A program made the position numbers and the translations under genes. The notes beneath the pieces were generated by a model, which searched no databases, was not told the origin of the DNA, and saw only the letters and a program-made list of their open reading frames with translations. Positions 6,704 to 43,407 of a DNA stretch of 64,000 bases are shown here, piece by piece; position 1 is the stretch's first letter, and each line of letters starts with the position of its first letter. This DNA is from Candidatus Omnitrophota bacterium (GTDB lineage Bacteria; Omnitrophota; Gorgyraeia; Aquiviventales; Aquiviventaceae): the NCBI GenBank assembly GCA_016180575.1, contig JACPAY010000003.1:42154-106153 (forward strand), read 5' to 3'.

Positions 6704-6719
6704 CGCGTTCAACGCCTCC

Positions 6720-7727
6720 TCAACGGTCGAGCCACGTCTGCTGGCAGGACCCCCGCTCGATGAGCTCCGTCGGCAGCAGCAGCTTCGTGGGGTGGCGGGG
6801 CTTGCTGTTGATCTGCTGAAAGAGCAGCTCCAGGCCCCGGCGGCCCATCTCGCTCAGCGGCTGGCGGACGGTGGTCAGCGGCACGCGGGCGGTCGCGGCG
6901 CTGGGGATGTCGTCGAAGCCGACGATGGAGAGCTCCTCGGGGACCCGGAGCCGCTTCTCGAGGGCGACGTTGATGGTCTCCAGCGCCATGTCATCGCTGG
7001 CCACGAAAATCGCCGTCGGCCGCTCCTTCAGGGCGAGCAGCGCTTCGGCGGCCGCCCGCGCGCTCGGCAGCCCGAAATCGCCGAACCGGACATACTCGTC
7101 CCTCACCGGCAGCTGCCGGGCCTTCATCGCCTTCATGAAGCCGTCGAGGCGGTCGAGCCCGGCCTGCACCTTGAGGTCGCCGGTGATCGTGGCAATGTCC
7201 CGGTGGCCGAGGCGGACCAGATACGCGACCACGTGCTCGGCCGCGGTCCGGTTGTCGATCGCCACGCAGGTCACCGGCAGCTCCTCGAGATAGTGGTTGA
7301 GGACGACCACGGGCAGCCGGTCATCCACGATGCGGTCCAGGAGCTCCTCGCAGCCGAAGAGGTCCGCGAAGATCACCCCATTCACCGACGGGGGGAGGTC
7401 GGACGCCTTGCCGTTGGCGACGTGGAGCAGCAGGTCGCATCGCAGGCGCTCCGCGGCGATCCCGCATCCCTTGACGACCTGCAGCGCATAGTGGGAATGG
7501 AAGATGCCCTCGAAGCGGGGGATGATGAGGCCGAGGGTCGGCTTCGCCTTCCCGGAGGCCAGCCGCTGGGCGCTGGGGTTGGGCCGGTAGCCCAGCTGCC
7601 TGATCGCCGACTGGACGCGGCGCTGGTTTTCCGCCGAGACGGTGGGCACGCGGTTGATGACCCGCGAGACCGTCGTGGTGGAAACCCTGGCGGCCTTGGC
7701 GACGTGTGCGATGTCCACTTTCTTCAT
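6720..7727 (-). CDS. LacI-family transcriptional regulator
   Basis: N-terminal HTH MKKVDIAHVAKAARVSTTTVSRVINRVPTVSAENQRRVQSAIRQLGYRPNPSAQ, followed by a periplasmic-binding-protein-like sugar-binding body. Confidence 0.9.
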   Translation of the reverse strand: MKKVDIAHVAKAARVSTTTVSRVINRVPTVSAENQRRVQSAIRQLGYRPNPSAQRLASGKAKPTLGLIIPRFEGIFHSHYALQVVKGCGIAAERLRCDLLLHVANGKASDLPPSVNGVIFADLFGCEELLDRIVDDRLPVVVLNHYLEELPVTCVAIDNRTAAEHVVAYLVRLGHRDIATITGDLKVQAGLDRLDGFMKAMKARQLPVRDEYVRFGDFGLPSARAAAEALLALKERPTAIFVASDDMALETINVALEKRLRVPEELSIVGFDDIPSAATARVPLTTVRQPLSEMGRRGLELLFQQINSKPRHPTKLLLPTELIERGSCQQTWLDR

Positions 7728-7755: not shown

Positions 7756-9300
7756 CTAGAACGCCGCGGGGGCGTCGCTCGCGAGCCGGTCGCCGGCGGG
7801 ATTGATCAGCTGGGCGGTCACGAAGATCAGGAGATTGGAACGCTCGGCGCTGTCGTCCTCCTTGCGGAACAGCTTGCCGAGGAGCGGGACGTCTCCCAGG
7901 ACCGGCACCTTGGTCACCGTCTTGGACGTCGTGTCCTTCATGAGGCCGCCCAGGACGACCGTCTCGCCGTTCTCGATCACGACGCTCGTCTCGAGGTTCC
8001 GGGTGGTGAACCGGGGCAGGCTGACCTCGCCGCCGAAGGAGTCGCTGGTCTTCTGCTCGCTGACCTCCGGCTTGAGCGCCAGGGTGATCGTCCGCTGGTC
8101 CTGGCCGATGCTGGGCGTGACGTTCAGCAGGATGCCGAGGTCCTTCGTCACGAAGTCCTGCGGCACGTTCACGAACCGCGTCTCGGCTGTCCCGCTCACG
8201 GTGTCGAGGAAGTCGCCGTCGCTGTTGAGGTCCTTCCGGGTGACTGAGGCCTCGTACTGCGTGGCGTAGACGAACTCAGTGACCACCTTGATGGTGGCGG
8301 TCTGGTTGTTTAGGGTCGTCACGCGCGGGGCGGAGAGCGTCTTGGTCTTTTTGTTCTGGGCCAAGGCGTGGAGGACCGCCTGGTACTGGGTGCCGGTCAG
8401 GATGCCCTGGAAGGTCAGGTTCAGGGCGTTGCCGGAGGTCTGGTTCGTGAAGTCGGTGAACGCGGTCTTGGTCCCGCGCGCGAGCGACGTGCCCGTCTTG
8501 GAGAGCTGTAAGGCCGCCCCGCGCGTGCCGTCCTTGCCGGTCTTCGTGAGGAGTGTCGCATCGCCCGTCAGCGCGGCGTCGAACCCCCACTCCTTCGTAT
8601 CCGTGAAGGTGACCTCGATGAACCGCGCCTCGATGAGCACCTGCGACGGCGTCACGTCCAGCGCCGTCAGGAGCTGCTCGATCTGCTGGAGGTAGTAGGG
8701 CGCATGCGTCACGAGGAGCGAGCCGCTGCGCTCATCGAGCTGCATGGAGCTGTCGCCGAGCTGAGGGACGACCTCGTCCAGGACATCCTTGATGGTCGTC
8801 AGCTCCCGCAGGCTCGTGGCCTGGAGCGCCACGCTCTCGCGGGTTTCCGAGATCGGCTCAAACGTCGCGAAGAGCCCCGGCCCCTTGGCGAGGGAAAAGA
8901 GCCGGGTCTCCATCGGCTCCTCCTCCATCTCGTCGCGGGTCGCCACCCAGATCGCCTGCTCGTCAAACCGGTACAGGAGCCCCTGGCCCCTGAGCAGGTA
9001 CTCCAGGACCCGGATGAACGGCACGTCCACGAGGTGGACCGTGACCGGGCGGCCGAGCTCGGCCGCCTTCTCCGACACGATGACGTTGACGTCGGCGCCT
9101 TCGGCGAGGAACTGCATCGCCGCGGCGAAATCCAGCTCCTCGAAATCGGCCGTGATGGGCTGGCTCATCGCCTCGACCAGCGCGGGCGGCACCGCCCGGC
9201 TGGCCCCCTCGAGGCTCGCCAGCACATGCTCCGCCGCCGCGGCGCTCAGCGGCCCGGCCGCGAGGAGTGCCACGGCCAACAGCAGGGCGCGGGCGCTCAT
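7756..9300 (-). CDS. Secretin (GspD/PilQ family), distal copy
   Basis: Signal peptide MSARALLLAVALLAAGPLSAAAA. Secretin core: KTKTLSAPRVTTLNNQTATIKV ... VVLGGLMKDTTSKTVTKVPVLGDVPLLGKLFRKEDDSAERSNLLIFVTAQLI. Confidence 0.9.
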   Translation of the reverse strand: MSARALLLAVALLAAGPLSAAAAEHVLASLEGASRAVPPALVEAMSQPITADFEELDFAAAMQFLAEGADVNVIVSEKAAELGRPVTVHLVDVPFIRVLEYLLRGQGLLYRFDEQAIWVATRDEMEEEPMETRLFSLAKGPGLFATFEPISETRESVALQATSLRELTTIKDVLDEVVPQLGDSSMQLDERSGSLLVTHAPYYLQQIEQLLTALDVTPSQVLIEARFIEVTFTDTKEWGFDAALTGDATLLTKTGKDGTRGAALQLSKTGTSLARGTKTAFTDFTNQTSGNALNLTFQGILTGTQYQAVLHALAQNKKTKTLSAPRVTTLNNQTATIKVVTEFVYATQYEASVTRKDLNSDGDFLDTVSGTAETRFVNVPQDFVTKDLGILLNVTPSIGQDQRTITLALKPEVSEQKTSDSFGGEVSLPRFTTRNLETSVVIENGETVVLGGLMKDTTSKTVTKVPVLGDVPLLGKLFRKEDDSAERSNLLIFVTAQLINPAGDRLASDAPAAF

Positions 9301-11489
9301 GTCGTGTCTCCCCGCGGCGCCAGCAGCCGCGCGGTGATGAAGATCAGCAGGTTCTTGCGCGTGCTGGACTCGTCCGTCTGGCGGAACAGCCCGCCGACGA
9401 GCGGGATGTCCCCCAGGACCGGCACCTTGGTCACCGTCTTGGACGTCGCGTCCTTCATGAGGCCGCCCAGGACGACCGTCTGCCCGTCCTCGATGACGAC
9501 GCTGGTCGTCAGCTGGCTCGTGGTGAACTCGGGCACGGTCACCCCCCCGCCCAGGTCGCGGAACTGGCTGAAGCTGCTCACCTCGGGCGCCAGCACGAGC
9601 GTGATCGTCTTGAGGTCCTTCCCGACGCTCGGCGTCACGTTCAGGAGGATGCCCACATCCCGCTTCTGGAGGTCCTGGGGCACATTGGCGAACTCCGTCT
9701 CCCCGGCGTCATCGAAGTCGCCGTCGCCGTTGATGTCGAACTGGATGAGCGACACCTCGTAGCGGGTCGGGTAGTTGAACTCATCCACCACGCGGATCGC
9801 CGCCGATTGGTTGTTCAGCGTGGTCACGCGGGGCGCGGAGAGCGTCTTGGTCTTCTTCGACTCTTCCAGGAGGTGGAGCACCGTCTCGAACTGCGTGCCG
9901 GTCAGCACGCCCTGGAGGGTGAGGTTCAGCCCCTCGTCTTCCCGCGATAGCGCCGGGAACTTGAGGCCGCCCCCGCTCGCGATCTGATTCCCGACGCCCT
10001 GCGTCCCGTCCTGGTGCTCCTTCTTGGACAGCGTGACCGCGTTGGTCAGCACCGATTCCAGGCCGACGTGCTCCAGGTCGGTCACGACCAGCTCCACGAA
10101 CCGCGCCTCGATGAGCACCTGGATCGGCGTCACGTCCAGCTGGCTCAGCAGCCGCTCCACCTGGCGGAGGTTCTCCGCGGTGTTCGTCACGATGAGCGAG
10201 CCGCTGCGCTGGTCCACGATGAACTTGCTGTCCGGCGCCTTGGGGATCGCCTGCTCGATCAGCTTGACGATGGACTCCATGGCCAGCGCGGGGTTCGGGG
10301 AGAGGGCCGCGGTTTCCAGGGCGAAGGGCCCCAGGCCGCTCTGCAGCAGGAACACGCGGGTCTCCATCGGCTCGCTCGAGAACTCCTCCGGCGTGGAGAT
10401 GAGGATGGCGTCCCGCTCGACGCGGTAGGCGAGCGAGAGGCTCTTGGCGAGGTACTTGACCGCCCGCTCCAGCGGCATGTCCTTCACCTTGAGCGACACG
10501 CGGCGGGTCTTGAGGTCGAGCTGCGGCGAGGGGACGACGCTCACGCTGGCCGCATCCGCGATGAAGTCCAGCACATCGCTGAGCGCCACGTCGTTGAACT
10601 CAAAGCTGATCGGCTCCTGGAGCTTCCCGGCGACGGACCCATCCGGCCTCGTGGCGAGGAGCTGGCGGCCGGACGCCAGGGGGGCCTGGCGCAGGGCGGG
10701 CAGCAACTGGGCCTTCAGGACCTCGTTGTACATGGCCCGCTCGTCCCGCGCGACCTGGCGCGTGGCCCGGCGCTGCTCGTCGTCCAGCCTGGCCATCTGC
10801 GCCTGCTCGATCAGGCGGTGCGCCTCGCGGTTCGACGGGTCCTGCACCAGCACCGCGGTCAGGAGCTTGATTGCGATGTCATACTTCCGGTCCTGGATCG
10901 CCTCTTTGGCGTATTTGAACGCCGTCTCCAGCTCGATCCGCTTCTGCGTCAGCGCCTGCTCCAGCTCCGGCACGATCGCCCCGGACCGCTGCGGCGACTC
11001 GAGGCTGGCGCGCAGCCGCGCCTCGAAATGCTTCATCTCGGCCTGCGCCATCAGCCGGTCGGCGGCCTTCACCAGCGCGTGGCCGGGGTCGATCAGCGCC
11101 ATCTGCTGGAAGAGCTGCACCGCCTCCTCGTAGGCCCCGTCGCGGTAGCGGGCCAATCCCTTCTGGTAGAGCGCCTTGAGCTGCCGTTCTCTCGCGAACT
11201 GCACCTGGCGCTGCGCCTCGCGCTCCTGTGCCTGCTGCCGCTCAAGCCGCTTGCGGCCGGCGGCGATCGCCTCGCGCTGCGCCTCCTCGCGCGCGCGGGC
11301 GCGCTCCTCCTCCAGTTTGCGCTGGCGCTCTTCTTCCAGCTTGGCCTTGGCCGCATCGAGGAACTGCTGGGCCATCGGCGTCAACCGCCCCTTCGGCTCT
11401 TCCGCCTGCCCCTGCTCAGCGGCGGACAGCCGGCCGAGACAGGCGGCGGAGCATGCCAGGGCGGCGAGCAGCGCGAGGCTACGGCGCAT
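9297..11489 (-). CDS. Secretin (GspD/PilQ family) with long N-terminal coiled-coil/TPR-like extension, proximal copy
   Basis: Signal peptide MRRSLALLAALACSAACLG. About 250 aa are rich in E/R/Q/A with TPR-like helices. Secretin core: KTKTLSAPRVTTLNNQSAAIRV ... VVLGGLMKDATSKTVTKVPVLGDIPLVGGLFRQTDESSTRKNLLIFITARLL. It overlaps the next secretin by 4 nt. Confidence 0.9.
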   Translation of the reverse strand: MRRSLALLAALACSAACLGRLSAAEQGQAEEPKGRLTPMAQQFLDAAKAKLEEERQRKLEEERARAREEAQREAIAAGRKRLERQQAQEREAQRQVQFARERQLKALYQKGLARYRDGAYEEAVQLFQQMALIDPGHALVKAADRLMAQAEMKHFEARLRASLESPQRSGAIVPELEQALTQKRIELETAFKYAKEAIQDRKYDIAIKLLTAVLVQDPSNREAHRLIEQAQMARLDDEQRRATRQVARDERAMYNEVLKAQLLPALRQAPLASGRQLLATRPDGSVAGKLQEPISFEFNDVALSDVLDFIADAASVSVVPSPQLDLKTRRVSLKVKDMPLERAVKYLAKSLSLAYRVERDAILISTPEEFSSEPMETRVFLLQSGLGPFALETAALSPNPALAMESIVKLIEQAIPKAPDSKFIVDQRSGSLIVTNTAENLRQVERLLSQLDVTPIQVLIEARFVELVVTDLEHVGLESVLTNAVTLSKKEHQDGTQGVGNQIASGGGLKFPALSREDEGLNLTLQGVLTGTQFETVLHLLEESKKTKTLSAPRVTTLNNQSAAIRVVDEFNYPTRYEVSLIQFDINGDGDFDDAGETEFANVPQDLQKRDVGILLNVTPSVGKDLKTITLVLAPEVSSFSQFRDLGGGVTVPEFTTSQLTTSVVIEDGQTVVLGGLMKDATSKTVTKVPVLGDIPLVGGLFRQTDESSTRKNLLIFITARLLAPRGDTT

Positions 11490-13203
11490 GGCGGTCTCCT
11501 GGCGAGCCTCCCTCCAAGACGGCTTCCTTGGTGATGACCTGCTCGAAGAGCGCCACCGATTCCTCGTAGGCGCCCTTCTGGAACGTCTCCATCGCGCGCG
11601 CGAAGAGCCGCTCCACCTCGGCCGCCTGGGCTTCGCGCCTGGCGCGCTCCTTTTCGGCGAGGAGCTGCTCGTGCAGCACGGTGACTCGGCTCATCTGGGG
11701 CGGGTTGAGCGCCTGGGCCTGGATCACGAGGCGGATCGCCTCGTCAAACCGTCCCTTGCCCGCCAGCTCGCCGGCGCGGGCGATCAGGTCTTCCGCCTTG
11801 CGGCTGACGGCGTCCCGCTCGCGCTGCTCCGCGGCTCGTGCCTGCTGGTAGCGGGTTTCCATCTCGCGCGCCAGCTGCAGCGCGAGCTGGCGCTCGCGCA
11901 GCACCCGGTTTTGCTCCTCCAGCTGCTTCTCTTCCCGCACCTGCGTGACCAGCCGCTGCTGCAGCAGGCTCAGCTCGGTGGACAGCTCCGCGGGCGCCTG
12001 CTGGATCGCCTCGGTCAGCCACGCGATTCCCTCCACCCGTTGGCCCGCATTCTGCCGCTGGAACGTCTGCTCCAACCGCGCCAGCGACACCTGCCGCTCG
12101 GCCTGAACCGATTCCGCCCGGTGGAGCTTGGCCGTCATCTCCCGGTCGAGCTCCTCCCCGCGGCCCTGGAGCGCCGCCTGCTCCTGAACGAGCGCCTGAT
12201 GCCGCCGCTGGATGTCCGCCACTTCATCCCGCTTGGCCTGGAGGTACGCGGTGTCCTGGCGGCGCGTCTGATAGAGCAGCTCGGCCATCGACTGGCGCAG
12301 GGTGGCCTCTTTCACCGTGAGGCGCCGCGAAAGCTCCAGCGCCTGCTCCGACTTCAGCTGCTCGCCGAGCTGCGCGCGTCCCCGCTCGATGTAGGCCTCG
12401 CGCTCGGCGCTCAGCTGGGCGCGGCGGGCCTCCAGCTCGGCCTTCCGCCGCGCGAGCACCTCCTGCATGGACCGCTCGATCGAGCTGGCCAGCGCGGGGT
12501 TCGCCTCCACGCGGGCCAGGCGGTCCAGGAGATCCTGCGTCTGCAGCTCGATCTCCTTGCTCAGCTGCTGCAGCTCGCGCTCCTTGAGATTCAGATCCTG
12601 ATCCGAGGTCTTGTCGATCGCCGCCTGCTGGCGGTTCTCGAAGGTCTGCAGCTGGCGGCCGTATTCCTGCTGAAGCTCCTCGGTGATCAGCTGGCGCGTC
12701 TGCACGAGCTCCGCCGCAAGGCGGCTTTCCAGATCCTTCCGCAGGGCGGCGAGCCGATCCTGCTGCTCGCGCTCAAGCGACGCCAGCTCCTGCTCCGCGC
12801 GGCTTCGCTGCTCGCCGAGCACCTTCAGCTCGCCGGACACCGTCGACAGCTTCGTCTTCACGCTGTCCTGCGCGGCGCGCAGCTGCCGGATGTCGCGCTG
12901 CGCGTCCTCGTTGGCGGTGTAGGCCCGGAAGACCTGCTGGAGGACCGGCGCCACGTGCCGGGCTTCAGTCGGCACATGGGTGAGAAACGAGGAGAATGAG
13001 GCGGCCGTGCTGCCTGTCGAGTTAAGGCCGTCCTCGGCGGATGTCCGGGCTGCCGGAGCGGCGAGCAGGCCCGCGAGACAAAGCACAACGGCGCGGACAA
13101 CCGCCTGCTGCCGTCCGCGCCGATCCCGTGATGCGTCGTCACTGCTTCTGCGTGCGCTCACCCGATGCGACCTCCCCTTGCGTGCCACGTCTTCGCACCG
13201 CAT
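11479..13203 (-). CDS. Membrane-anchored long coiled-coil protein with C-terminal TPR-like helices (function unknown)
   Basis: Anchor AVVRAVVLCLAGLLAAPAA, then ~450 aa of heptad-like Q/E/R/L/A sequence. The C-terminus reads FDEAIRLVIQAQALNP...FARAMETFQKGAYEESVALFEQVI. It overlaps the secretin start by 11 nt. Confidence 0.7.
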   Translation of the reverse strand: MRCEDVARKGRSHRVSARRSSDDASRDRRGRQQAVVRAVVLCLAGLLAAPAARTSAEDGLNSTGSTAASFSSFLTHVPTEARHVAPVLQQVFRAYTANEDAQRDIRQLRAAQDSVKTKLSTVSGELKVLGEQRSRAEQELASLEREQQDRLAALRKDLESRLAAELVQTRQLITEELQQEYGRQLQTFENRQQAAIDKTSDQDLNLKERELQQLSKEIELQTQDLLDRLARVEANPALASSIERSMQEVLARRKAELEARRAQLSAEREAYIERGRAQLGEQLKSEQALELSRRLTVKEATLRQSMAELLYQTRRQDTAYLQAKRDEVADIQRRHQALVQEQAALQGRGEELDREMTAKLHRAESVQAERQVSLARLEQTFQRQNAGQRVEGIAWLTEAIQQAPAELSTELSLLQQRLVTQVREEKQLEEQNRVLRERQLALQLAREMETRYQQARAAEQRERDAVSRKAEDLIARAGELAGKGRFDEAIRLVIQAQALNPPQMSRVTVLHEQLLAEKERARREAQAAEVERLFARAMETFQKGAYEESVALFEQVITKEAVLEGGSPGDRHAP

Positions 13204-13225
13204 GCCTTTTGTTCGTTCTTCCTGG

Positions 13226-13765
13226 TTATTGCGGTTCCGCTTCGGCCTTAAGTTTTATGATGATCTGCTGAGCGGTTTTAATGTCCGATAATACCACTTG
13301 AGCCGGCGACATGTCAAGCACTTTGAATCCCGCAACCTCTTGTCCGACTTCAAGAAAATAGGTCTTCCCCGTGGTGGTCTCCTCCACGACGGCCCGCTGG
13401 CGCTTGCCCAAGTTGACGTGGCCCTTGTAGAGGAATTGGGGCGTGATCGGCGCGCCGGCGGCTCCGCCGGCGCTTCCGGCGGCCGGCTCGGCCTCCTCAG
13501 CGCCGACCGGACGGCGCTGCGGCGAGAAGGGGTTGGCGTTGAGGACGGCGTCCAGCCATGCCGGGTCGGCCTCCGGGATCCCCTCAGACGGCTCCGAGAC
13601 GATGGGGAACTCCTCCCGCACGCGATCCCACGGCTCGCCCGCGAGCTCGACGCGCTCCGTGCCAACGGCGGTCGCGCGCCACTGCACGATGGCGAAGGCC
13701 GCCATCGCAAGGCCCGCCGCGAGCGCCACCGGCGGCCCGGCGGAGGTGCGGTGCGTCGTCGTCAT
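13226..13765 (-). CDS. PilP/GspC-HR-like inner-membrane secretin-interacting protein
   Basis: ATG at 13765 was verified. TM segment PPVALAAGLAMAAFAIVQW, a Pro/Ala linker, and the C-terminal beta domain FLYKGHVNLGKRQRAVVEETTTGKTYFLEVGQEVAGFKVLDMSPAQVVLSD. The rest of the 388-aa track ORF is a low-complexity extension overlapping the upstream gene. Confidence 0.6.
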   Translation of the reverse strand: MTTTHRTSAGPPVALAAGLAMAAFAIVQWRATAVGTERVELAGEPWDRVREEFPIVSEPSEGIPEADPAWLDAVLNANPFSPQRRPVGAEEAEPAAGSAGGAAGAPITPQFLYKGHVNLGKRQRAVVEETTTGKTYFLEVGQEVAGFKVLDMSPAQVVLSDIKTAQQIIIKLKAEAEPQ

Positions 13766-14628
13766 GGACGGCGCTCCTTCGCGCGCGCTTTGGGCTTGCG
13801 CGGCTTCGCGGCTGGGGAGGGCTTCGGCTTCGCGGCCTCCGATGCCTCGGACTCCGCAGCGGCCGGCTCCGTCGTCTCGGCGGCCACGAGGTAGCGCGCG
13901 AGCACCAATTCCGTCTCCAGCCGCTCGCCGGCCGCCGCCGCCCCGCCCGGCGATGCCGGCCGCAGGCGGATGGCCCGCACATCGATGAGCGGCCGCGCGC
14001 GCGACAGCGCCCCGAGCGCCTTCATCATGTGAGAGAGCGAGGCCGACAGGCGGACCCGGACCGGCAGCCGCATCAGGAACGCGCCCTCCTCCGGGCGATC
14101 GGGCACCGCCTCCGGATCCTCCACCTTGAGGGACGAGATGGCCGGCACGTCCTGCTCGAAGAGCAGCGTCGCCACCTCCTCCATCAACGAGAGCTGCGCG
14201 AGCAGCCGCGGCACCGCATCGGAGGGAGGCAGCTCCTTGGGAAACCCCAGCTGCTCCGGCACCGGCACGCCGCGCGCCGCGGAGAGCCGGTCCAGCGTCC
14301 GCTGGACCTCGTGGAGGTGCTCCTGGAAGTAGAGCTGGGGATCGGCCTGCGCCGCGTCGACCAGCGGGGGGACGGCGACCGCCTTCAGCCAATGCTGGTA
14401 GCGCCGCTCCAGCGAGAGCTGGTGGGCGGTGAGATGCTCCATCACCTCCTGCGTGGGCGGGATGCCGCCGCTGAGCGCGAGCTTCTTCAGCGCCGCGCGC
14501 TTGCTGCGGATCTGGGCGTCAAGGCTCTGGAGGCTGACCCGCCAGCCGATGACGCCGGCCAGCGCGGCGCCGGCGAGGGTCGCGGCCAGGAGCGGCTGCC
14601 ACGCGATGGGGGGGCGCGGTTGGGCCAT
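13762..14628 (-). CDS. PilO/GspM-like assembly protein
   Basis: ATG 14628 makes an ATGA overlap with the upstream stop. Short cytoplasmic N-terminus, TM segment LLAATLAGAALAGVIGW, a coiled segment, then a ferredoxin-like periplasmic part (RLPVRVRLSASLSHMMKALGALS) and a basic Lys/Pro tail. Confidence 0.6.
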   Translation of the reverse strand: MAQPRPPIAWQPLLAATLAGAALAGVIGWRVSLQSLDAQIRSKRAALKKLALSGGIPPTQEVMEHLTAHQLSLERRYQHWLKAVAVPPLVDAAQADPQLYFQEHLHEVQRTLDRLSAARGVPVPEQLGFPKELPPSDAVPRLLAQLSLMEEVATLLFEQDVPAISSLKVEDPEAVPDRPEEGAFLMRLPVRVRLSASLSHMMKALGALSRARPLIDVRAIRLRPASPGGAAAAGERLETELVLARYLVAAETTEPAAAESEASEAAKPKPSPAAKPRKPKARAKERRP

Positions 14629-16082
14629 CACGGGGCGGACTCGGGTTGCAGGGGGCGCTCCACCTGCACGCTGAAGGCGATGACCTCTTTCCCGAGTGTT
14701 TCGTCGGTGATGACGTTCGTCGAGAGCGGCTTCACCGTGGTCATGCCCGCCTGGCTCTTGAGCTGCTCCAGAAACTTCGTGACGTCCTGGAACGAGGTCG
14801 CCCGCCCCTCGAGCAGCCCTCCCAGCCCGCCGCCCTTTGAGCCGTCCAGGGCCGTCAGCCAGACCGCGCGCGGCATCGCCGCGGCGATCTGCGACAGCCA
14901 GCGCGTCAGCGCGGGGGAGTCCGCCGCGAGCTGCGCGAGCTGCAGGCTGCGTCCCTCGGTGCGCTGCTGGCGCTGGATCAGGGCGCGGATCTCGGGACGC
15001 AGCGTCTGATACAGCCGCTCCCGCTGCTCGAGCGCCCGCTGGACGCCGACGCGCCGGGCGCGCACCGTCAGCATGCCGTTGGCGCCGACGAGGACGGCAA
15101 CCGCCAGACACGCGCCTGCGGCGATCAGCGAGGCCTGGCGGATGAGCCGGGCCTGTGTTTCGCGTTGCGCGCCGTCCAGCAGGTTCAGCGGGAGGGGCGC
15201 CGCCCCCACCCCTTGCAGGGCCAGGCCCAGCGCCACCGCCATCCGATCCGGCTGCTCAACCTGCACCGTGCCGAAGCCGATGGCCTTTGTGAAATCGGCT
15301 CGCTCCACCGCCGTCCCGCCCAGCGCCTGCTGCGCCGGCGCGAGCGAGTCAGGCGGGCCCACGAGCCAGACCGGGGGGGCCGCCTCGAGGCCCTCCGCGC
15401 GCAGCGCCTGCCAGGAGGCGGTGACGTGCTCCCAGAGCGCGTCGGGCGATGGGCTGGTCACCGGGACCACCTGAAGGCGGTCGGGGCCCCAGATGCTCCA
15501 CTCCGCCTGCTGCGGCTCGATCAGCGTCAGCCAGGAGGTCGTGGCGCCGCGCGAGGGAGCAAGGAGGCTCGCCGCGTTCAGCGCCGCGACGCCGTTCACC
15601 GTCACCGCGCGCACATTGAGCCCCGCGCGGCGGCACGCGGAGAGCCGCTCATCGAGCAGCGACTGCCGCATGGCCCCTGCCACCGCCTGAGCGGGGGGCT
15701 TGAGCCACTGGTAGTGCCACGCGGCGTCGGCCAGCTCGAAGGGGAGGTGCTGCTGCAGCTCAAATTGGACGGCGAGCGCCGCCCGGCGCGGGGTGACGAT
15801 CAGCGGCTGGACCGTCGTGAGGATGGCGCTCGTGCTCGGCACGCCGAGCACCACCGGGGCGGTGACGCGCAGGCGCTGCCGCAGGTCCGCCAGCGCCCGG
15901 GTGAGCGGCTCGGCCTGCGAGGTGTCGCAGGAGGCCTCCTGCGCGGCGAGGAGCTGCAGGCGCGTTCCCGCGCGCTCCACGACCACCGCCCGGAGCGAGG
16001 AGGGGCCCAGCGCGACGCCGACCCCGACCCGCCTCGACGCGCGAGCCCGCGCCAGGAGGCCGGGGAATCCGCGGAGGGGCAT
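14628..16082 (-). CDS. PilM-PilN fusion / GspL-like assembly protein
   Basis: The N-terminal ~300 aa are actin-like (VGVGVALGPSSLRAVVVE...). These are followed by TM segment ASLIAAGACLAVAVLVGANGML and a PilN-like periplasmic domain (VWLTALDGS...GRATSFQDVTKFLEQLK). Confidence 0.7.
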   Translation of the reverse strand: MPLRGFPGLLARARASRRVGVGVALGPSSLRAVVVERAGTRLQLLAAQEASCDTSQAEPLTRALADLRQRLRVTAPVVLGVPSTSAILTTVQPLIVTPRRAALAVQFELQQHLPFELADAAWHYQWLKPPAQAVAGAMRQSLLDERLSACRRAGLNVRAVTVNGVAALNAASLLAPSRGATTSWLTLIEPQQAEWSIWGPDRLQVVPVTSPSPDALWEHVTASWQALRAEGLEAAPPVWLVGPPDSLAPAQQALGGTAVERADFTKAIGFGTVQVEQPDRMAVALGLALQGVGAAPLPLNLLDGAQRETQARLIRQASLIAAGACLAVAVLVGANGMLTVRARRVGVQRALEQRERLYQTLRPEIRALIQRQQRTEGRSLQLAQLAADSPALTRWLSQIAAAMPRAVWLTALDGSKGGGLGGLLEGRATSFQDVTKFLEQLKSQAGMTTVKPLSTNVITDETLGKEVIAFSVQVERPLQPESAP

Positions 16083-16141
16083 TGTCAGACGCAGCGATCC
16101 ATACGGGGTAGCTTACACCTTCGACGCGCGCCTGTCACGGA

Positions 16142-17698
16142 TCACTCGAGTCTCCACAACTTGATGTGGGGCCCCTTGGGGAATGAGAAGAGCGAGGGCT
16201 CAACGCCGACCACCCACGTCCGCTCCGCCGGAGACGGATCCTCCTCGTCCAGCTGGATGCCCGGCGTGCCGTTGACGTCCTTCGCGGCCTTCACCCGGAA
16301 GTAGTGGTTGCCGAGGACAAGGCCTGGGACGGCCGCGGTGGCCGTCGCGCTCCAGTCGGACCACGCGTCGTTGTCGAACGCGAACGCAAACACGCAGCCG
16401 CCCTCAGGGCAGCTGAACGTGAACGTGGCCGACGGGTCCTGGCTGAAGCCGGCGGGGCCGCTGGTGATCGTCGTCTCCGGCGACAGGAGCAGGAGATCGA
16501 TGACGTCCGAGACGGGGCTGGAGGTGTTGCCCGCCTTGTCGACGAACTTCACGTACACCCGCTGCGGGCCGCGGATGGCGGTCAGCTTCCAGAACTTCCG
16601 CAGCGCCGCGTAGGGCTCCGCCACGTAGCCGGTCGCCTCGTCGTTGCTGATGAGCATGCTGGAGAGGCCGGACGTCGCGTCGGAGGCGTCCAGCTCCAGC
16701 GTGACGTGGACGCTCGTCGTCAGGTCCGCATCGCCGTTGATGAGCACCGTCCCGGTCGGGGGCTTCGTGTCAAGGGTCACGCTCCAGACGAGGGGCGTCT
16801 GGACGTTGCCCGCGACGTCGGATGCGCGCAGCTCAAGGCTGTTGGCGCCTTCCTTCCACCCGCCGCCGGCCGCGGTGAGCGTCCCGGTCGCCGGCGCGTA
16901 GGACACGCTCGCGGCGCTGCCGTTCACCTGGAGGCTCAGCGAGGAGGCATCGACCCCGCTCGCCGCATCCGCGAGGGTCGCCGTCACATTGGCGGAGGCG
17001 TTGAGCAGGCCGCCAGCCTCCGGCGTGTGGGTGACGATCTGCGGCGGCGTCGTGTCCACCCACAGCTCAAGCGAGAGCGGCTTCCCAGCGTTGCCCGCGC
17101 TGTTGAGCGCCTTGACCGTGAAGGTGTGCACCCCATCGCTCAGCGTGTTGGGGGTGGCCGCCGCCACGTCGAACGAGGTCGAGGTCGTGTCCACGACGTC
17201 ATCCGGCGCCTGGTCCAGGCCGTAGCTGTACCCCGCCACGTCCGCCCCGGTGAGCGGCGGCTCCCAGATGAAGAGCGGATCGGCATCGGTCTGCCAGGTC
17301 TGCGGGGTGATCTTCAGCCCCAGGGCGTGGGTCTTCGCATACAGGTCGGCGAGGTCCAGATCGGTGATGGGCGGGAGCGTGGTGGCGGAGAGGCTCGCGC
17401 CGAGGAAGCCGGGGACGATCCGGAACTTGGAGCTGGAGATGGTGGCCGAGGACACGCCGTCCCCGATCGATACCTGCTGGCGGAAGTTGGACGACGTGGA
17501 CGTCCCGCCGCCCTGGTTGGTGCTGCCCGTCTCCAGCTTCTGGCTGGTCCCCTCGCTGACCGCCGCCTCCGCCATCGGCGAGGTGGCGAGAAGCGCCAGC
17601 AACCATGAAAACGCTAATGTTTGGGACAGGGGACATGGGACATGGGACAACGAGCCCGCGCGACCCCCCCGTCTCCTGTCTCCTGTCTCTTGTCTCAT
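16142..17698 (-). CDS. Secreted protein with tandem Ig-like (bacterial Ig/Big-type) domains
   Basis: Hydrophobic signal LAFSWLLALLATSPMAEA. Repeated beta-sandwich modules (DTTPPQIVTHTP..., DTKPPTGTVLING...). ATG 17698 overlaps the upstream stop (TGATG). An alternative CTG start at 17629 would skip the repeat-encoded 23 aa. Confidence 0.75.
   Translation of the reverse strand: MRQETGDRRRGGRAGSLSHVPCPLSQTLAFSWLLALLATSPMAEAAVSEGTSQKLETGSTNQGGGTSTSSNFRQQVSIGDGVSSATISSSKFRIVPGFLGASLSATTLPPITDLDLADLYAKTHALGLKITPQTWQTDADPLFIWEPPLTGADVAGYSYGLDQAPDDVVDTTSTSFDVAAATPNTLSDGVHTFTVKALNSAGNAGKPLSLELWVDTTPPQIVTHTPEAGGLLNASANVTATLADAASGVDASSLSLQVNGSAASVSYAPATGTLTAAGGGWKEGANSLELRASDVAGNVQTPLVWSVTLDTKPPTGTVLINGDADLTTSVHVTLELDASDATSGLSSMLISNDEATGYVAEPYAALRKFWKLTAIRGPQRVYVKFVDKAGNTSSPVSDVIDLLLLSPETTITSGPAGFSQDPSATFTFSCPEGGCVFAFAFDNDAWSDWSATATAAVPGLVLGNHYFRVKAAKDVNGTPGIQLDEEDPSPAERTWVVGVEPSLFSFPKGPHIKLWRLE
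17623..17698. repeat. Heptamer-based inverted repeat: (GGGACAK)n - loop CGAGCCCGCGCGA - (CCTGTCY)n; copy 1
   Basis: Read directly. It is 88% identical over 78 nt to 21762-21839. It covers the first 23 codons of the track ORF. Confidence 0.7.
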
Positions 17699-20600
17699 CA
17701 GCGTTGCACCACCGTCAGGATCCGCTGCGCGGCGCCCGGCCGGTCATCGTCCATGGCCTGGCCCACGCTCTGGACCTGGAACACATCGGACCGCGTCGTC
17801 AAGAGATGCGCCACGCGGCGGAACACCTCCAGCTTGGCCTCCTCGTCGTCCCCGAAGACCTCGCCGAGCAGCAGGTCGCCGATCCCCCGGCCTTTCTCGT
17901 CCTGGTCTCCGTAGGGGCGGCCGGCGATGAGCCGCGAAATCAGGGCATCCGTCATCTCGGGCAGCGCCCGCAGGACCTCCAGGGGAGCGGTGTTCACGTT
18001 GACCGGCCCGATGCGGACGAGCTGCGGGTCGAGCCGGATGTAATCCAGGTGGCAGATGCCGCTCGGCGAGGCGCACTCCACCTCGACGGCCAGCGCGTTG
18101 GCCGACGGCCCGGCGCCCGCGGCCCCGACCGTCACCTGGCCGACGATGAGGCGCCCCTGCGCGTTGGCCGTCAGCGCCGGCGACCAGTCGGTCAGCGTCC
18201 CATCCGCCTGCTCCCACCGAACCGCCATCTGTTCCCCGCCCCAGCCGTGCAGGCTCAAGCGGTACTGTCCGTCCAGGAGCCCCGGCCACCGCCACCGCCC
18301 CGGGACGGCCGGCTGGGCGGGGCTGCTGTGCTCGTAGTAGCCCTCCGCCTTCTCCTGCCAGGCGTCCTCGCCCGCCACAAGGCGCCCCTCGGCCTCCAGG
18401 CGCAAGCCCTCGACCGTCAACCGGTCGACGAGCCTGGCGAGATCCGCGCTCGCGAACGGCTCCCACGCCTCGCCGCTCGGCAGGCCGGCCAGCTCCCCGA
18501 CCCCCCCGAGCGGCCGGTTCACCACGGTGATCTCCTCCGCCGGATCGTGCACGATCACCTCCAACTCGATGAGCTCCTTGAGGCCGTTGTTGTCATTGGG
18601 CAGGCCGGGGGTGTAGAGCTGGAGCGATGGATACCACTCGTCATCCACCCCATCCCCATCCCCGTCCGTGCGCACGCTGGGATCTCCCTTCTCCAGGCTC
18701 TGGAAATCCGCCGTCGTCGGCGGCGGCAGCGCGTACTCCACTTCGTCCACGGTGGCCGTCCCATCCTGCAGCGTCAGGCGCGTGACGCCTCCGGCGGCCA
18801 GCGCCGCCTTCAGCCAATCGTCATCGGCCGACGGTGAACCGTCCGGGAACTCGAGCTGGACGGCGCTGGCGTCATCGGCGATGTCCCACGCCTCGCGCGC
18901 GGAGATGCCGTTGCCCCCCAAGCCGGCCGGCGCATCGTCGAGGTCAACCGCCGCGACCAGCAGGCCGTGCGCCGCGATCATGGTGCCGTCCGGCAGCCGG
19001 GCCTGGCGGCCGCCGGTCAGCTCCCCGGCGATGGTCCAACCGCCCACGTCGATGTCCTGGTCGCTGAGATTGATGAGCTCCACGTACTCCGCGTCCGGCT
19101 GCAGCGAAACGCTGACGCTCTTAAGATAGTATGTCCCGTCCGAGGCGGTTTTGCCAATAGTGAGGGTGATTTTTCCATCGGAGCCGACCAGGATGGTGGA
19201 GGGGTGGCGCTGCTCGTGGAGCAGGAGCTCGCTGTCCCCTTCGACCCGCACCTCCCCGACGGTCTGGCCCGCCGCCGAGCCGAAGACGCGCAGGTGGTAG
19301 CGGCCGGGTTCCAGCGTGGGATCGGTCCAAACCCAGCGCGCCTGCCCCACCCCGCTGTTGGTGCACACCCCCTCGCCCAAACAGGCCCAGTCGGAGCCCT
19401 GGGCGTCGAAGGTCGCCGCCGAGGCCTCAAGCGTCTTGGTCGGCTCGACCATCACCTCGTTGAAGCGAACCGCCTCGATGCCGGCCACCGTCACCCCGGC
19501 GGAGCCGGATGACTCCGAGCTGAGCTCGACGCCCCGGAAGGCGCACGCCGTGCCCGCCGGCTCCCGATTATCCACCTGGACCGTCAGCGTTCCGGTAAGC
19601 GTCAAGGTGCCCAGCAGCTCATCCGCATCGGCTGAGGGGTACAGCTCCCCCGCCACCGTCACGTCGCCCACCTTCACCCCGCCCACCCCCAGGGCGCGGA
19701 TCCGGAAGGTGCCGGACGGCACCGGCAGCACCCAGGAGAGCGGCTGCCCGCCGGGGCCGTCGCTCGCGTAATGCCCCTCCGGCTCATCGCTCCACTCCCA
19801 GGAGCCCAGGGAGCCCTGGCTCGAGATGACCAGGGTCTGGGCGGACTTCGTCACTTTGGAGAGCTCAAGGTCCGCGTCCACGTAATCCGCCATGTTGACC
19901 GCCGCCTGCCAGGGATCCGCCACGCCGGCCTCGAACAGCACCTCCAGGAGCTCCTCGGCGGTCGCGGTGTTCACGTTGATCCGCGCCGCACCGGTCACGG
20001 CGGCGTTCAGGTCCCAGCTGTAGACGGTGGCCGCGCGCGCGAGGCGGCGGATGTCCTCCGCGTCCAGGCCGGCGATGGCGGCCAGATCCTCCAGGCTCTC
20101 CAGCCGCCGGTCATCGCCCTGAGGCGCCAGCGGCTGATACTCGTCCGGCTCGTCGATGGCGCCATCCCCGTCATCATCAACGCCCGAGACGCCGGGCCGA
20201 GCGTCCTCCCCGTTTCGGTACGCCTCGATGGCTTCGGCGACGGCGGCGGCGTCGCTGATCCCCGTTTCCTGCAGGAGCGTCGTGAGGTTCAGCGCCCCCA
20301 GGCCGAGGGGCGAGGGGTCGGCCTGCCCGGCGTTCAGGTTGGCCTTGCCGGACTCATCCGCCACCAGCACGGCGTAGCGCCCGACCGTCTGCTGGCTCGC
20401 ATCGGCCACCGGCCGCCACTCGGCATCCGGCGCGTCGTCGCCGTCGACATCCACGTCGCTCCCCTGGAACGCCGTCACCCACGGTTCGGTCGCGTCGTCC
20501 ACCCGTGACGCCAGGCGGTCCTCATCGAGCAGCGCCCGGGCCACGTTGACGCCGGCTTCCGCCAGGTAGCGGGCCTGGGTCGTCGAGACGAACTGCCGCG

Positions 20601-20731
20601 TGGCCTGGGTCTCCAGGTACATGGAGAACGCGAAGGCCACGCCCATGATGCCGACCACGGTGAGGAGGCTCACGACGATGAGGAGGGCGATCCCCCGCTC
20701 TGAAAGTGCCTGGCGCTGCGCTGTCGAACAT
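17698..20731 (-). CDS. GspK-like minor pseudopilin, ~1000 aa, with large insertions including a lamin-tail-like domain; start codon unresolved
   Basis: N-terminus SERGIALLIVVSLLTVVGIMGVAFAF. GspK-type motifs: ARYLAEAGVNVARALL, VLVADESGKANLN, ARINVNTATAEELLEVL and C-terminal GPVNVNTAPLEVLRALPEMT...RSDVFQVQSVG. The insertion carries EYVELINLSDQDIDVGGWTIAG. No in-frame canonical start follows the repeat (see finding). Confidence 0.7.
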
Positions 20732-21412
20732 GTCGTCTGGCCGCGGGTGACGCGGAGCCGGGGCCCCCGCCGCCTGCCCGCAGGCCGAGGAGGCCGAGGA
20801 CAGCCGGCGGGGTGGCGGCGCGGCAGGACCCTCGAAGCGCTCGGGCCTCTGCTTGCCGACGACCAACAGGATGTCGATCGCGTTGGGCAGCTGCCCGTCG
20901 GGGCCGGTGCGGCTGCGGCCGTCCCACCGGTCGAGCCACTCGGTCCCGTCGAAATAGGACACCGTGAACTGGGACACGTCGCTGCCGCAGAGCTCGCTTG
21001 TCCCGGTCGCGTAGTCGCCGTCGGCAGGCTCATCGTCGTGGCACATGAGGTCGCCGTCGGCGGTGACCCAGTAGCCGCGCTCCACGAAGCCGGTGCGTCC
21101 CGGCAGCGTCCCCACGAAGAAGAGCTCATCGGCCGCGCTGCCCTCCTGGAGCGGCGCCTCGTCGCCGGCCCGGCGACCGATCAGGGGATAGCGGCTGCTC
21201 GCCACGGCGGAGGTCAGCTCGCGGCTGAAGAGGTCGAAGAGGAGCCGGGCCTGCTGGTAGCGCTCCGTCCGCAGCTCGCCGGTGCGCCAGGCCCGGATGA
21301 TCCCGCGGAACAGCAGGGTGGCCGACGCGCTCACGGTGATGAGGATGGCCATGGCGACGAGCAGTTCCACGAGCGTCACCCCAGAGCCGCTAGGAGGGTT
21401 CCTGCCGGACAT
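20522..21412 (-). CDS. GspJ-like minor pseudopilin (3' end uncertain: ORF reads through the repeat)
   Basis: ATG 21412 gives MSGRNPPSGSG|VTLVELLVAMAILITV, a prepilin cleavage/methylation motif. The protein-like sequence ends near ...NAIDILLVVGKQRPERFEG (~20835). Beyond that the frame is repeat-derived and then out of frame with the K-like gene. Confidence 0.6.
   Translation of the reverse strand: MSGRNPPSGSGVTLVELLVAMAILITVSASATLLFRGIIRAWRTGELRTERYQQARLLFDLFSRELTSAVASSRYPLIGRRAGDEAPLQEGSAADELFFVGTLPGRTGFVERGYWVTADGDLMCHDDEPADGDYATGTSELCGSDVSQFTVSYFDGTEWLDRWDGRSRTGPDGQLPNAIDILLVVGKQRPERFEGPAAPPPRRLSSASSACGQAAGAPAPRHPRPDDMFDSAAPGTFRAGDRPPHRREPPHRGRHHGRGLRVLHVPGDPGHAAVRLDDPGPLPGGSRRQRGPGAAR
20739..20831. 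repeat. Second copy of the 97-bp GC-rich repeat; left TIR intact, right end diverged
   Basis: GGCCGCGGGTGACGCGGAGCCGGGG...GGTGGCGGCGCGGCAGG aligns with 4352-4438. It lies at the J-like/K-like gene junction. Confidence 0.7.
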
Positions 21413-21770
21413 AGGTGAGGAACGTGAGCTCGCGCGGCCGGCCGTCCTGCACAAACCGGAGCCGGACTTCAATGGCTTTCAGGCGGCTTTTGTCCTCGAG
21501 ATCCGATGGGGCCGGCTGGCTGATGCGCGTCGTCACGTCAAACCCGTCTTCCTCCGCCGTCGTTTCCCCCTCGGTGAGCGCCTCCCAGGGCTCCAGCTTC
21601 AGCGACTCGATGGTGCGCTGCGCCACCAGGGCGGCCCGGCTGTGCCGCTCGGCGCGCAGCGAGGCCCGCAGCCCCATCGGGAACACCCGCATCGCGCCGA
21701 CGAGCCCCACCGACAGGATGGCCATGGAGATGAGCAGCTCGATGAGAGAAAACGCGGACGCTTGAGACAT
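21390..21770 (-). CDS. GspI-like minor pseudopilin
   Basis: ATG 21770 gives MSQASA|FSLIELLISMAILSVGLVGA, a prepilin motif, at GspI-like length (126 aa). A longer form from ATG 21839 would add a repeat-encoded 23-aa leader. Confidence 0.7.
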   Translation of the reverse strand: MSQASAFSLIELLISMAILSVGLVGAMRVFPMGLRASLRAERHSRAALVAQRTIESLKLEPWEALTEGETTAEEDGFDVTTRISQPAPSDLEDKSRLKAIEVRLRFVQDGRPRELTFLTYVRQEPS

Positions 21771-21839
21771 GGGACATGGGACATGGGACAACGAGCCCGC
21801 CCGACTCCCCTGTCCCCTGTCCCCTGTCTCCTGTCCCAT
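21765..21839. repeat. Heptamer-based inverted repeat, copy 2: (GGGACAT)3 - loop CGAGCCCGCCCGA - (CCCCTGT)n
   Basis: Read directly. It lies between the platform-gene stop (21844) and the prepilin start. Confidence 0.7.
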
Positions 21840-21843
21840 ACGG

Positions 21844-22914
21844 TTACCCCAGGAGTTTGGTCAGCGACATGAGTGGCAGGAACATGGCGATGACGATGAA
21901 CCCGACGACGCCGCCGACGAACACGATCAGCATCGGCTCCAGCAGCTGCGTGAGCCCGGCCAGCTGCACCTCGACCTCCTCGTCGTAGCTGTCGGCGACC
22001 TGCATCAGCATCCGGTCCAGCTGCCCGGTCTCCTCGCCCAGCGCGACCATGCGGGTGACGAGGGGCGGAAAGACGCCCGAGAGCTCCATCGGCCGCGCCA
22101 GCGACTCGCCCACCTTGAGGCTGCGCTCCACGTCCTGCAGCGCCTCATCGATGACGACGTTCATGACGGTGGCGCGGGTGGTCTCGAGGGCGCTGAGGAT
22201 GGGGACGCCGCTGGAGATGAGCGTGCCGAGGGTGCGCGCGAAGCGCGAGATGAGCAGCCGCTCCACCAGCGAGCCGATGCCCGGGGCGCGCAGGAGGGTC
22301 TGGTCGACGAGCCGCCGGCCCCGCGGGGTCTTGAGCGCCGCCCGGAGGATGGCCCAGAGCCCGGCCAGGGCGAGCAGGACGATCCACCACCAGCCGCGCA
22401 CGATGTTGCAGGCGGCGATGAGAAAGCGGGTCGGCAGGGGGAGGGCCGAGCCGAGCTCCGTGAACATCCCCAGGAAGGTGGGGACGACGAAGGCCATGAG
22501 CACGATGAGAATGCCCACGGCGACCACCATGACGAACGCGGGGTACATCAACGCGCTCTTCACCCGCTCCCGCAGGCGCGCCTGCTTCTCGAGCAGCTCC
22601 GCGAGGCGCTTGAGGATCTCATCGAGCAGCCCGCCCACCTCCCCGGCGCGGACCATGTTGACGTAGAACGGGGGGAACCACGACGGGTGGGCGGAGAGCG
22701 CCTCGGAGAACTTCACCCCGGCCTCCACGTCGGATGCGATCGCCGTGAACACCTCCCGCAGCGGGCCGGGATCGAGCTGGTCGCTGACGGTGCGCAGCGC
22801 GCGCAGCAGGGGCATGCCCGCCTTCACGAGCGTCGCCAGCTGGCGAGTGGTCAGGACGAGCTGGGGCCGCCCGGAGCGCCCCAGCCGCAATCCGGGCCTC
22901 CTGCGCGAACCCAT
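21844..22914 (-). CDS. Type II secretion / type IV pilus platform protein (GspF/PilC family)
   Basis: Two T2SF-type repeats: RQLATLVKAGMPLLRALRTV...FYVNMVRAGEVGGLLDEIL and FARTLGTLISSGVPILSALETT...LVTRMVALGEETGQLDRML. Three TM segments. ATG 22914 was chosen to avoid overlap with the upstream gene. Confidence 0.9.
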   Translation of the reverse strand: MGSRRRPGLRLGRSGRPQLVLTTRQLATLVKAGMPLLRALRTVSDQLDPGPLREVFTAIASDVEAGVKFSEALSAHPSWFPPFYVNMVRAGEVGGLLDEILKRLAELLEKQARLRERVKSALMYPAFVMVVAVGILIVLMAFVVPTFLGMFTELGSALPLPTRFLIAACNIVRGWWWIVLLALAGLWAILRAALKTPRGRRLVDQTLLRAPGIGSLVERLLISRFARTLGTLISSGVPILSALETTRATVMNVVIDEALQDVERSLKVGESLARPMELSGVFPPLVTRMVALGEETGQLDRMLMQVADSYDEEVEVQLAGLTQLLEPMLIVFVGGVVGFIVIAMFLPLMSLTKLLG

Positions 22915-22948
22915 CAGCGTGCGGGTTGCGGACCGGCGGGGAGCGGGA

Positions 22949-23890: not shown

Positions 23891-23894
23891 GCCC

Positions 23895-43379: not shown

Positions 43380-43407
43380 AGTATAACCTAACTGGCGGCC
43401 CGGTCAA
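43380..43407 (-). promoter_or_regulatory. Candidate sigma70-type promoter for PilZ + ABC transporter (TTGACC-16-TATACT)
   Basis: Minus strand: TTGACC (43407..43402), a 16-nt spacer, TATACT (43385..43380), then AAGGGG before ATG 43350. Confidence 0.45.

Follow-up and report, generated by a model that had tools for sequence, protein, structure and literature searches.

The 64,000-nucleotide (nt) stretch of Candidatus Omnitrophota DNA analyzed here (contig JACPAY010000003.1, positions 42,154 to 106,153; hereafter the window) carries two tandem, overlapping secretin genes on its minus strand, which we call secretin A (upstream) and secretin B (downstream). The two genes share a single short tract in which their DNA is nearly identical. 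It is well supported by our results that this near-identity of 70 nt stems from gene conversion and not from constraint. Taken as a whole, the locus is very probably best explained by A and B being ancient tandem paralogs that are maintained by purifying selection, with the tract as the product of short-tract gene conversion that has occurred recurrently. The features of the pair are listed below, with lengths in amino acids (aa) and gene calls based on open reading frames (ORFs) and Pfam.

7756..9300, minus strand: secretin B, 514 aa; signal peptide, N0/STN-like domain, Secretin_N and secretin core, no extension (ORF and Pfam)
9297..11489, minus strand: secretin A, 730 aa; signal peptide, helical extension, N0/STN-like domain, Secretin_N and secretin core (ORF and Pfam)
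9297..9300, minus strand: 4-nt overlap (ATGA) of the A stop codon with the B start codon, read from the sequence
7891..7964, minus strand: tract copy in B, codons T447-D470; 69/70 nt identical over 7895-7964 and 72/74 over 7891-7964
9408..9481, minus strand: tract copy in A, codons T671-D694; one mismatch over 9412-9481
10620..11417, minus strand: coiled-coil/TPR-like extension found in A only, residues about 25-290 (~265 aa); weak Pfam TPR matches and AlphaFold2 helices

An earlier note on this DNA had reported that positions 7895-7964 and 9412-9481 differ at exactly one base and encode a peptide with TVVLGGLMKD. Both observations are correct, and the match can be extended to 74 nt with two mismatches. 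The two tract copies lie 1517 nt apart, and the flanks are diverged, as had also been noted, with an A-B nt identity of 62% across the rest of the alignment. Synonymous divergence (dS) along the alignment, a check that the note had proposed, is strongly non-uniform, at 0.05 in the tract versus 0.65 outside it (0.051 for 24 codons and 0.651 for the other 417 codons, window A versus B). At degenerate sites with identical amino acids, 21/22 codons are identical in the tract compared with 65% elsewhere in the gene pair. Since this codon bias is strong even outside the tract, a naive reading overstates how odd the tract is. Even so, a null model built from the codon usage of both genes gives a probability of ~1e-6 for all 22 codons matching. 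In a GENECONV-style permutation taken over 1083 polymorphic sites, a run of 52 matches with one mismatch allowed was reached in 0/2000 shuffles (p <= 0.0005). Low permutation p-values were also obtained for two related loci, L014 and L020 (relatives are referred to by L numbers). A dispersed repeat was considered as well and rejected, as the 32-nt core of the tract occurs just twice, with no third occurrence, within the window.

The earlier note had offered either gene conversion or strong constraint as the cause of this pattern, and only the former stood. Under constraint, purifying selection on a critical peptide and strong codon bias would keep the copies alike with no transfer of DNA. The setting is favorable to this, as the peptide lies within the most conserved part of secretins and the base composition is biased, with 69% guanine plus cytosine (GC) in the window and a GC content at third codon positions (GC3) of about 0.9 (0.8-0.95). 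However, the same 24 codons are diverged in other genomes, where the A-B dS is 0.68 (L025) and 0.73 (L005). In 17 other genomes, only 12-19/24 tract residues are identical, compared with 23/24 in the window, and the share of identical tract codons is 25-69%. At the nt level, the tract copies match at 54-55 of 72 nt in L025, L005 and L056, i.e., the tract is not homogenized in L056 (84% identical; 55 of 72 nt) or in L025 (54 of 72 nt). The best 24-codon stretch between A and B is found at the tract in both the window (97%) and L001 (92%); in other genomes the best stretch reaches 72-88% and mostly lies away from the tract.

The relationship between paralogs and orthologs also changes at the tract borders. 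Inside the tract, the window paralogs are 97% identical, compared with 93-94% for the window and L001 orthologs, whereas outside it identity drops to 62% between the paralogs and stays at 91-94% between the orthologs. A whole-alignment scan for unusually high identity within a genome flagged only the tract in the window, L001, L054 and L055, which are the four ~90%-identical genomes in which the tract is homogenized. The segment is thus discrete, highly identical and bordered by diverged flanks, its sequences group as paralogs by genome inside and as orthologs outside, and there is no constraint on it elsewhere, which is the pattern of gene conversion.

The window, L054 and L055 have variants of their own in the tract that are found in both paralogs. 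The first Val of TVVLGG (codon 8 of the segment as displayed) is GTC in both window copies and GTG in all four close relatives, including both copies of L001, L054 and L055. Both L055 copies have CTC and a Val-to-Thr change, and in L054 GTT and GGC are common to both copies and the tract continues into a B-type Lys codon. In the 5' two-thirds of the A copy, the window has B-type codons where L001_A and L025_A have kept the A-type TCG ACC. At the end of the tract, window B has the A-type GAC (Asp), a position that is Ser, or in rare cases some other residue, in the other B orthologs examined; Asp is otherwise found only in the converted B of L054. The B-type codons in window A and the A-type Asp in window B therefore show that sequence has moved both ways. 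The residues that distinguish the paralogs are unchanged directly on either side of the tract, with DGQ and GLFRQ..STRK in A and with NGE and KLFRK..ERS in B. Lineage-specific changes of this kind, synonymous and non-synonymous and in both paralogs, are not expected from constraint. Because of these variants, the contrast in dS, the state of the tract in other genomes, and paralogs that are closer than orthologs, we consider constraint highly improbable.

An artefact, in which an assembler or a mixed population collapsed a repeat during assembly or binning, is scarcely credible: the window does come from a metagenome-assembled genome (MAG) and short repeats can tangle assembly graphs, but the exact runs of just 37 and 32 nt are under typical final k-mers, a repeat mis-join would delete 1517 nt and yet neither gene is broken, and the same place is homogenized in L001, L054 and L055, which were assembled independently from other sites and each have variants of their own.

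The conversion is best described as non-reciprocal homologous recombination between the two copies, which started where they are most conserved. In the simplest history, one older event in the ancestor of the ~90%-identical clade made ~32 nt identical, and at least three later independent conversions followed in the window lineage, L054 and L055. In the window lineage, B-type sequence was transferred into A over most of the tract, and the A-type Asp codon into B at its 3' end. The first event might have provided the uninterrupted identity needed for efficient recombination, which could have turned the tract into a self-reinforcing hotspot, presumably through a RecA-type mechanism.

Another A-B patch is found in L056 (L056:794-4617), at B residues about 302-325, TGTQYQAVLHALAQNKKTKTLSAP. 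Here the A-B nt identity is 90-96%, compared with 62-74% in cross-genome comparisons. The patch was not flagged in the whole-alignment scan, and it points to a separate conversion tract at another conserved site.

Some points weigh against recurrent gene conversion between old, co-maintained paralogs as we describe it. How many events there were, and in what order, was worked out by parsimony from a few dozen sites, and the permutation null disregards rate heterogeneity among sites. Further, as every genome is a short-read MAG or a metagenome contig, chimerism at the population level is possible, though four independent assemblies agree. The ATGA overlap is also general in the operon and not peculiar to the secretin pair. 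Most genes of the operon are joined by start/stop overlaps (e.g., ATGA at 13762-13765, TGATG at 14626-14630 and an 11-nt overlap at 11479-11489), and the A/B junction therefore shows co-expression and nothing specific to the pair.

Both proteins belong to the secretin superfamily. Complete secretin cores in both had been claimed in the earlier note, and Pfam bears this out, with Secretin (PF00263) scores of 143.7 bits for A and 145.2 bits for B against a cut-off of 27.5. Secretin_N is also above its cut-off of 28.2 in both (33.1 bits in A and 30.4 bits in B), and STN falls slightly under its cut-off of 28.4 in both (22.1 bits in A and 25.4 bits in B). AlphaFold2 predicts N0- and N-domain-like α/β folds, i.e., periplasmic N-domains ahead of the core. 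The cores themselves were modeled with low confidence as monomers, with a predicted local distance difference test (pLDDT) value of 68 for A and 54 for B. As these core models do not permit fold searches or a three-dimensional placement of the tract, our use of the models was limited to secondary structure and, for A, the helical extension, which is predicted with confidence. The A and B proteins are 48% identical over 460 aa, their β-lip and hairpin loops differ in length, and fixed differences between A and B are found in 38 alignment columns across ~20 genomes. The 4-nt overlap stands as described in the earlier note, and the TGA stop of A sits within the ATG of B, where the junction reads ACATGAGC on the minus strand.

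The earlier note had asked whether relatives keep both copies, and they do. The B protein is 100% identical to NCBI HYT90_01535 (Candidatus Omnitrophica MAG), a match that came from the homology search, whereas looking up the exact B sequence gave no hit. Homology searches gave more than 120 B orthologs at 63-89% identity and more than 110 A orthologs at 57-91% identity. A locus scan with one genome per species gave 25 Omnitrophota loci with B orthologs or fragments, of which 20 include upstream DNA. In all 20, the B ortholog (61-89% identical) is immediately preceded by an A ortholog (59-90% identical), and inside any one of the scanned genomes A and B are about 45-50% identical. When three closer metagenome contigs (L054, L055 and L056) and the low-GC L051 and L052 are added to these 20, the A-then-B order holds in 25/25 related loci that cover both genes. 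The junction ACATGA occurs in 11/20 loci and in the low-GC L051, and in most others the B start lies within ~25 nt of the A stop. Selection acts on both copies. Compared with L001, the ratio of non-synonymous to synonymous divergence (dN/dS) is 0.044/0.186 for A and 0.072/0.299 for B (both about 0.24), and neither copy is a decaying pseudogene because both are under purifying selection.

In the low-GC (38%) relatives L051 and L052, the TPR-secretin has 838 or 908 aa and precedes a ~500-aa secretin and then the same LacI-family gene as in the window (the pairs are at L051:8001-12022 and L052:3156-7425). A-B identity within these relatives is 55%, compared with ~45% to either window secretin. 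A different arrangement is found in L053 (L053:120-3326), where a 1068-aa TPR-secretin is followed by small genes and BioY, and a second secretin is absent on the 5.7-kb contig. This is either a single-secretin lineage or a different locus. In a neighbor-joining tree of the core domain, the sequences of the high-GC clade sort into an A group and a B group. At greater depth A groups with B by lineage, with low-GC apart from high-GC sequences, while diagnostic columns compared between high- and low-GC members speak weakly for pairing by ortholog (A with A, B with B). The deep grouping by lineage could come from concerted evolution over long times, from independent duplications or from compositional attraction (38% versus 69% GC). 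Some orthologs of the pair (L003, L004, L007, L010, L012 and L025) are deposited as 'uncultured Planctomycetales bacterium', which is probably a taxonomic label problem of MAG records.

The earlier note had placed the tract in the gate/lip region of the secretin. This label is wrong, because alignment to Vibrio cholerae PilQ (6w6m) puts the tract at roughly residues 516-539, C-terminal to the reported gate residues 445-453 and 493 of that protein (PMC7545093). In the models, the tract forms the penultimate long β-strand (A 671-686 and B 447-463), followed by a low-confidence loop. The sequence then enters VPVLGDxPLxGxLF, and the tract covers the start of the motif VPxLGDxPxxGxLF. By alignment, the tract would thus comprise a strand of the barrel wall, a variable loop and the start of this motif, all C-terminal to the gate hairpins, and not the gate. 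According to PMC6532946, the amphipathic helical loop is the most conserved part of a secretin, and the tract motif VPxLGDxP putatively corresponds to this loop when matched at region level.

The extension that distinguishes A from B was correctly assigned to the upstream gene alone in the earlier note, and its predicted structure is clear. An AlphaFold2 model run with 31 orthologs gives A residues 38-262 as all-helical with a pLDDT of 78-92. The predicted helices span residues 38-116, 120-133, 138-163, 173-199, 203-216 and 221-262, and one of them thus has ~80 residues. Pfam TPR_2 and TPR_16 match weakly at residues 86-137; the A orthologs keep the extension and many of them show TPR matches. 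No conserved lipobox cysteine was found among the A orthologs compared, and the idea of A as a self-piloting lipo-secretin was dropped, as N-terminal cysteines vary among the orthologs. We also rejected the arm as a duplicate of the 574-aa gene upstream, since the common part is one ~24-aa TPR-like motif. A 36-nt direct repeat (11103-11138 and 11539-11574, 83% identical) encodes GAYEE[AS]V.LF[EQ]Q both in the N-terminal extension of A and at the C-terminus of the 574-aa coiled-coil protein, with no wider homology between the two.

Secretins form outer-membrane rings of 12-15 subunits with a gate. To our knowledge, all well-studied secretins are described as homo-oligomers with one gene per machine, and no published description of a tandem or heteromeric secretin pair was found in the Omnitrophota secretin and two-secretin literature, the coverage of which was not exhaustive. 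The earlier note had raised a heteromeric or a stacked channel. There is no support for a stacked arrangement. A heteromeric channel could take the form of an obligate mixed A/B ring, in which only the A subunits would project their TPR/coiled-coil arm into the periplasm and micro-conversion would keep the packing and membrane-insertion surfaces compatible. Both copies are kept side by side with complete cores, coupled start and stop codons and one set of partner genes, which fits a single assembly, if indirectly. The converted segment, i.e., the barrel strand and the start of the amphipathic helical loop motif, may be interchangeable as both proteins assemble alike, perhaps in one mixed ring. 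However, the 38 fixed differences, the unequal loops and the single secretin of L053 speak against such a ring, and we hold this sequence-based model tentatively, with somewhat more doubt than belief.

Alternatively, A and B might form two separate homo-oligomeric rings that serve different substrates or filaments or sit at different sites, in which case conversion would be a neutral consequence of the homology between the tandem genes. The features that disfavor the mixed ring also point in this direction, i.e., the 38 fixed columns, β-lip and hairpin loops of unequal length, and a TPR-secretin in L053 with no second copy after it, and so does the restriction of the helical extension to A. 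However, both copies are adjacent in every other locus examined, down to the 38%-GC relatives, and platform and alignment genes occur only once in the operon. We give two separate rings about the same weight as the mixed ring, again with somewhat more doubt than belief.

A third option is that B is the pore and A an accessory protein, whose TPR/coiled-coil arm would target, anchor or nucleate B as a scaffold or pilotin built into the protein. In type IVa pili, the secretin is bound by pilotins that are TPR lipoproteins (PMC10653833), the extension of A is helical and TPR-like, and a separate pilotin gene was not recognized in the operon by Pfam or NCBIfam. However, the core of A is complete, under purifying selection and as conserved as that of B, and A has no conserved lipidation site, which makes an accessory role for A unlikely.

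The secretin pair closes an operon, with which both genes would be co-transcribed, for a divergent type IV filament machine (type II secretion or type IV pilus-like) of the kind found in Omnitrophota and the Planctomycetes-Verrucomicrobia-Chlamydiae (PVC) group. In this machine, A and B would make up the part in the outer membrane. The other genes of the operon, and the regulator that follows it, are as follows.

6720..7727, minus strand: LacI-family regulator directly downstream of B; Pfam LacI and Peripla_BP_3
11479..13203, minus strand: coiled-coil protein with one TPR-like motif, 574 aa, directly upstream of A; weak TPR_2
13226..13765, minus strand: 179-aa protein at the PilP position; start chosen at the ATGA overlap
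13762..14628, minus strand: PilO/GspM-like protein, 288 aa; weak T2SSM_b and weak Amuc_1100 family
14628..16082, minus strand: PilM-PilN fusion, 484 aa; Pfam PilN 28.6 bits; Amuc_1101 family and PilM under cut-off
Upstream of the secretins in the operon, same strand: Big_13 protein, listed between the PilM-PilN fusion and the GspK-like gene
17698..21129, minus strand: GspK-like minor pseudopilin, very large (1143 aa); Pfam T2SSK and LTD
21390..21839, minus strand: prepilin-type pseudopilin, 149 aa; Pfam N_methyl; PilV/GspI-like by NCBIfam
21844..23019, minus strand: GspF/PilC platform protein, 391 aa; Pfam T2SSF 233 bits; TIGR02120 GspF 393 against a cut-off of 424

The 179-aa protein has no family match in Pfam or NCBIfam, and the GspK-like protein scores 94.5 bits with NCBIfam T2SS_GspK (cut-off 130) and also matches Verru_Chthon cassette protein A. 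Neither a GspE/PilB-type ATPase nor a prepilin peptidase was found in or beside the operon (7756-23019) within the window. The LacI-family gene occupies the same position in L051, L052, L054, L055 and L056. The gene for the 574-aa coiled-coil protein is present in L054 and L056 and absent from the low-GC L051 and L052.

Several other features surround the operon. A coiled-coil ORF (22949-23941) and a ROK-family regulator lie directly upstream of the GspF-like gene. On the other side, the LacI regulator and the genes that follow it are syntenic down to a 38%-GC relative (window 4451-7727 and L051:12151-17268), and this block includes a BioF-like aminotransferase, with BioB-like radical S-adenosylmethionine and BioD-like genes in relatives. 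Two giant ORFs are found on the minus strand at 43404-51647 (2747 aa) and 53279-63985 (at least 3568 aa), the second of which runs nearly to the end of the window. The 2747-aa ORF has phosphoglucomutase/phosphomannomutase domains in its C-terminal part. Between the giant ORFs and the secretion operon lie genes for carbohydrate import by ATP-binding cassette (ABC) transporters and for GH94 and GH2 enzymes.

Omnitrophota are probably predatory or symbiotic. The secretin pair is conserved and tightly linked across a clade of this uncultured phylum, near giant-gene loci, which makes the question of a two-subunit ring testable. If true, the mixed A/B ring would, as far as the literature searched shows, make this the first heteromeric secretin known from nature. 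Independently of this, the tract is a clean and datable natural example of recurrent short-tract conversion, where sister lineages each have their own event at the same 70 nt, and it can be used to estimate minimal homology needs and tract lengths in uncultured organisms. It also calls for caution, as conversion patches distort trees and dN/dS scans of such paralogs.

Gene conversion between duplicates is known in bacteria, e.g., for tufA/tufB and rRNA operons. These share with the secretin pair a patch of near-identity in diverged paralogs, homogenized silent sites and genome-specific shared variants. Compared with them, the secretin tracts are very short (~70 nt), recurrent at one spot and bidirectional, and they lie in overlapping tandem genes. 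Both conversion and secretins are already known, but a conserved tandem secretin pair with a long helical arm on one copy appears to be undescribed.

The best solved-structure matches of the window secretins are PilQ (E = 2e-34) and GspD, among the secretin structures compared (6w6m, 4av2, 6ve2 and 5wq8). A and B share with PilQ and GspD the layout of an N0/STN-like domain, an N-domain and a C-terminal core. The neighbors are alike as well, with PilM/N-, PilO/GspM-, GspF- and GspK-like proteins and a pseudopilin. With regard to a pilMNOPQ-type context, the PilM-PilN fusion, the PilO/GspM-like protein and the unassigned 179-aa protein precede the secretins, but GspK- and GspF-like genes are present as well, and all scores lie under the family cut-offs. 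However, neither secretin is a member of the curated families, as GspD (TIGR02517) gives 206.0 for B and 192.5 for A against a cut-off of 351.35, and PilQ (TIGR02515) gives 204.1 for B and 173.6 for A against 284.35. Because all nearest NCBIfam models score under their curated cut-offs, we regard the machine as divergent and outside the curated GspD and PilQ families. In contrast to the PilQ and GspD systems, AMIN domains are absent and the operon has two paralogous secretins instead of one, one of them with the ~265-aa helical extension.

Among described systems, the operon is nearest to those of the PVC group. The secretins, the PilO-like and the PilM-like proteins match the Amuc_1098, Amuc_1100 and Amuc_1101 models from the Akkermansia muciniphila cluster Amuc_1098-Amuc_1102, and the GspK-like protein matches protein A of the Verru_Chthon cassette; this placement follows from these model matches, the scores of which are far under the cut-offs (for the Amuc_1098 family, NF042912, 193.4 for B and 178.5 for A against 750, i.e., neither secretin is a member). 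The Akkermansia cluster is described as pili-like and has one secretin gene (PMC5332112), whereas the window operon has two. Within the same phylum, Omnitrophota giant genes have been reported beside a type II secretion-like locus (West-Roberts et al., 10.1101/2023.11.21.568195), a neighborhood comparable to the giant ORFs, sugar import genes, glycoside hydrolases and type II secretion-like cluster of the window. That paper mentions gspD, gspE, gspF and rcpC and, in the text searched, does not describe a tandem secretin pair; in contrast to the locus presented there, no gspE was found in the window operon, within the window.

The closest experimental parallel to a mixed A/B ring is PulD, of which full-length and N-terminally truncated forms co-assemble in vitro and give a regular gel ladder (PMC4604470). 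The PulD multimers combine two versions of one protein in vitro, whereas A and B are natural paralogs that are 48% identical and known here from sequence. Nevertheless, the same core with N-terminal parts of unequal length is the geometry that a mixed A/B ring would have.

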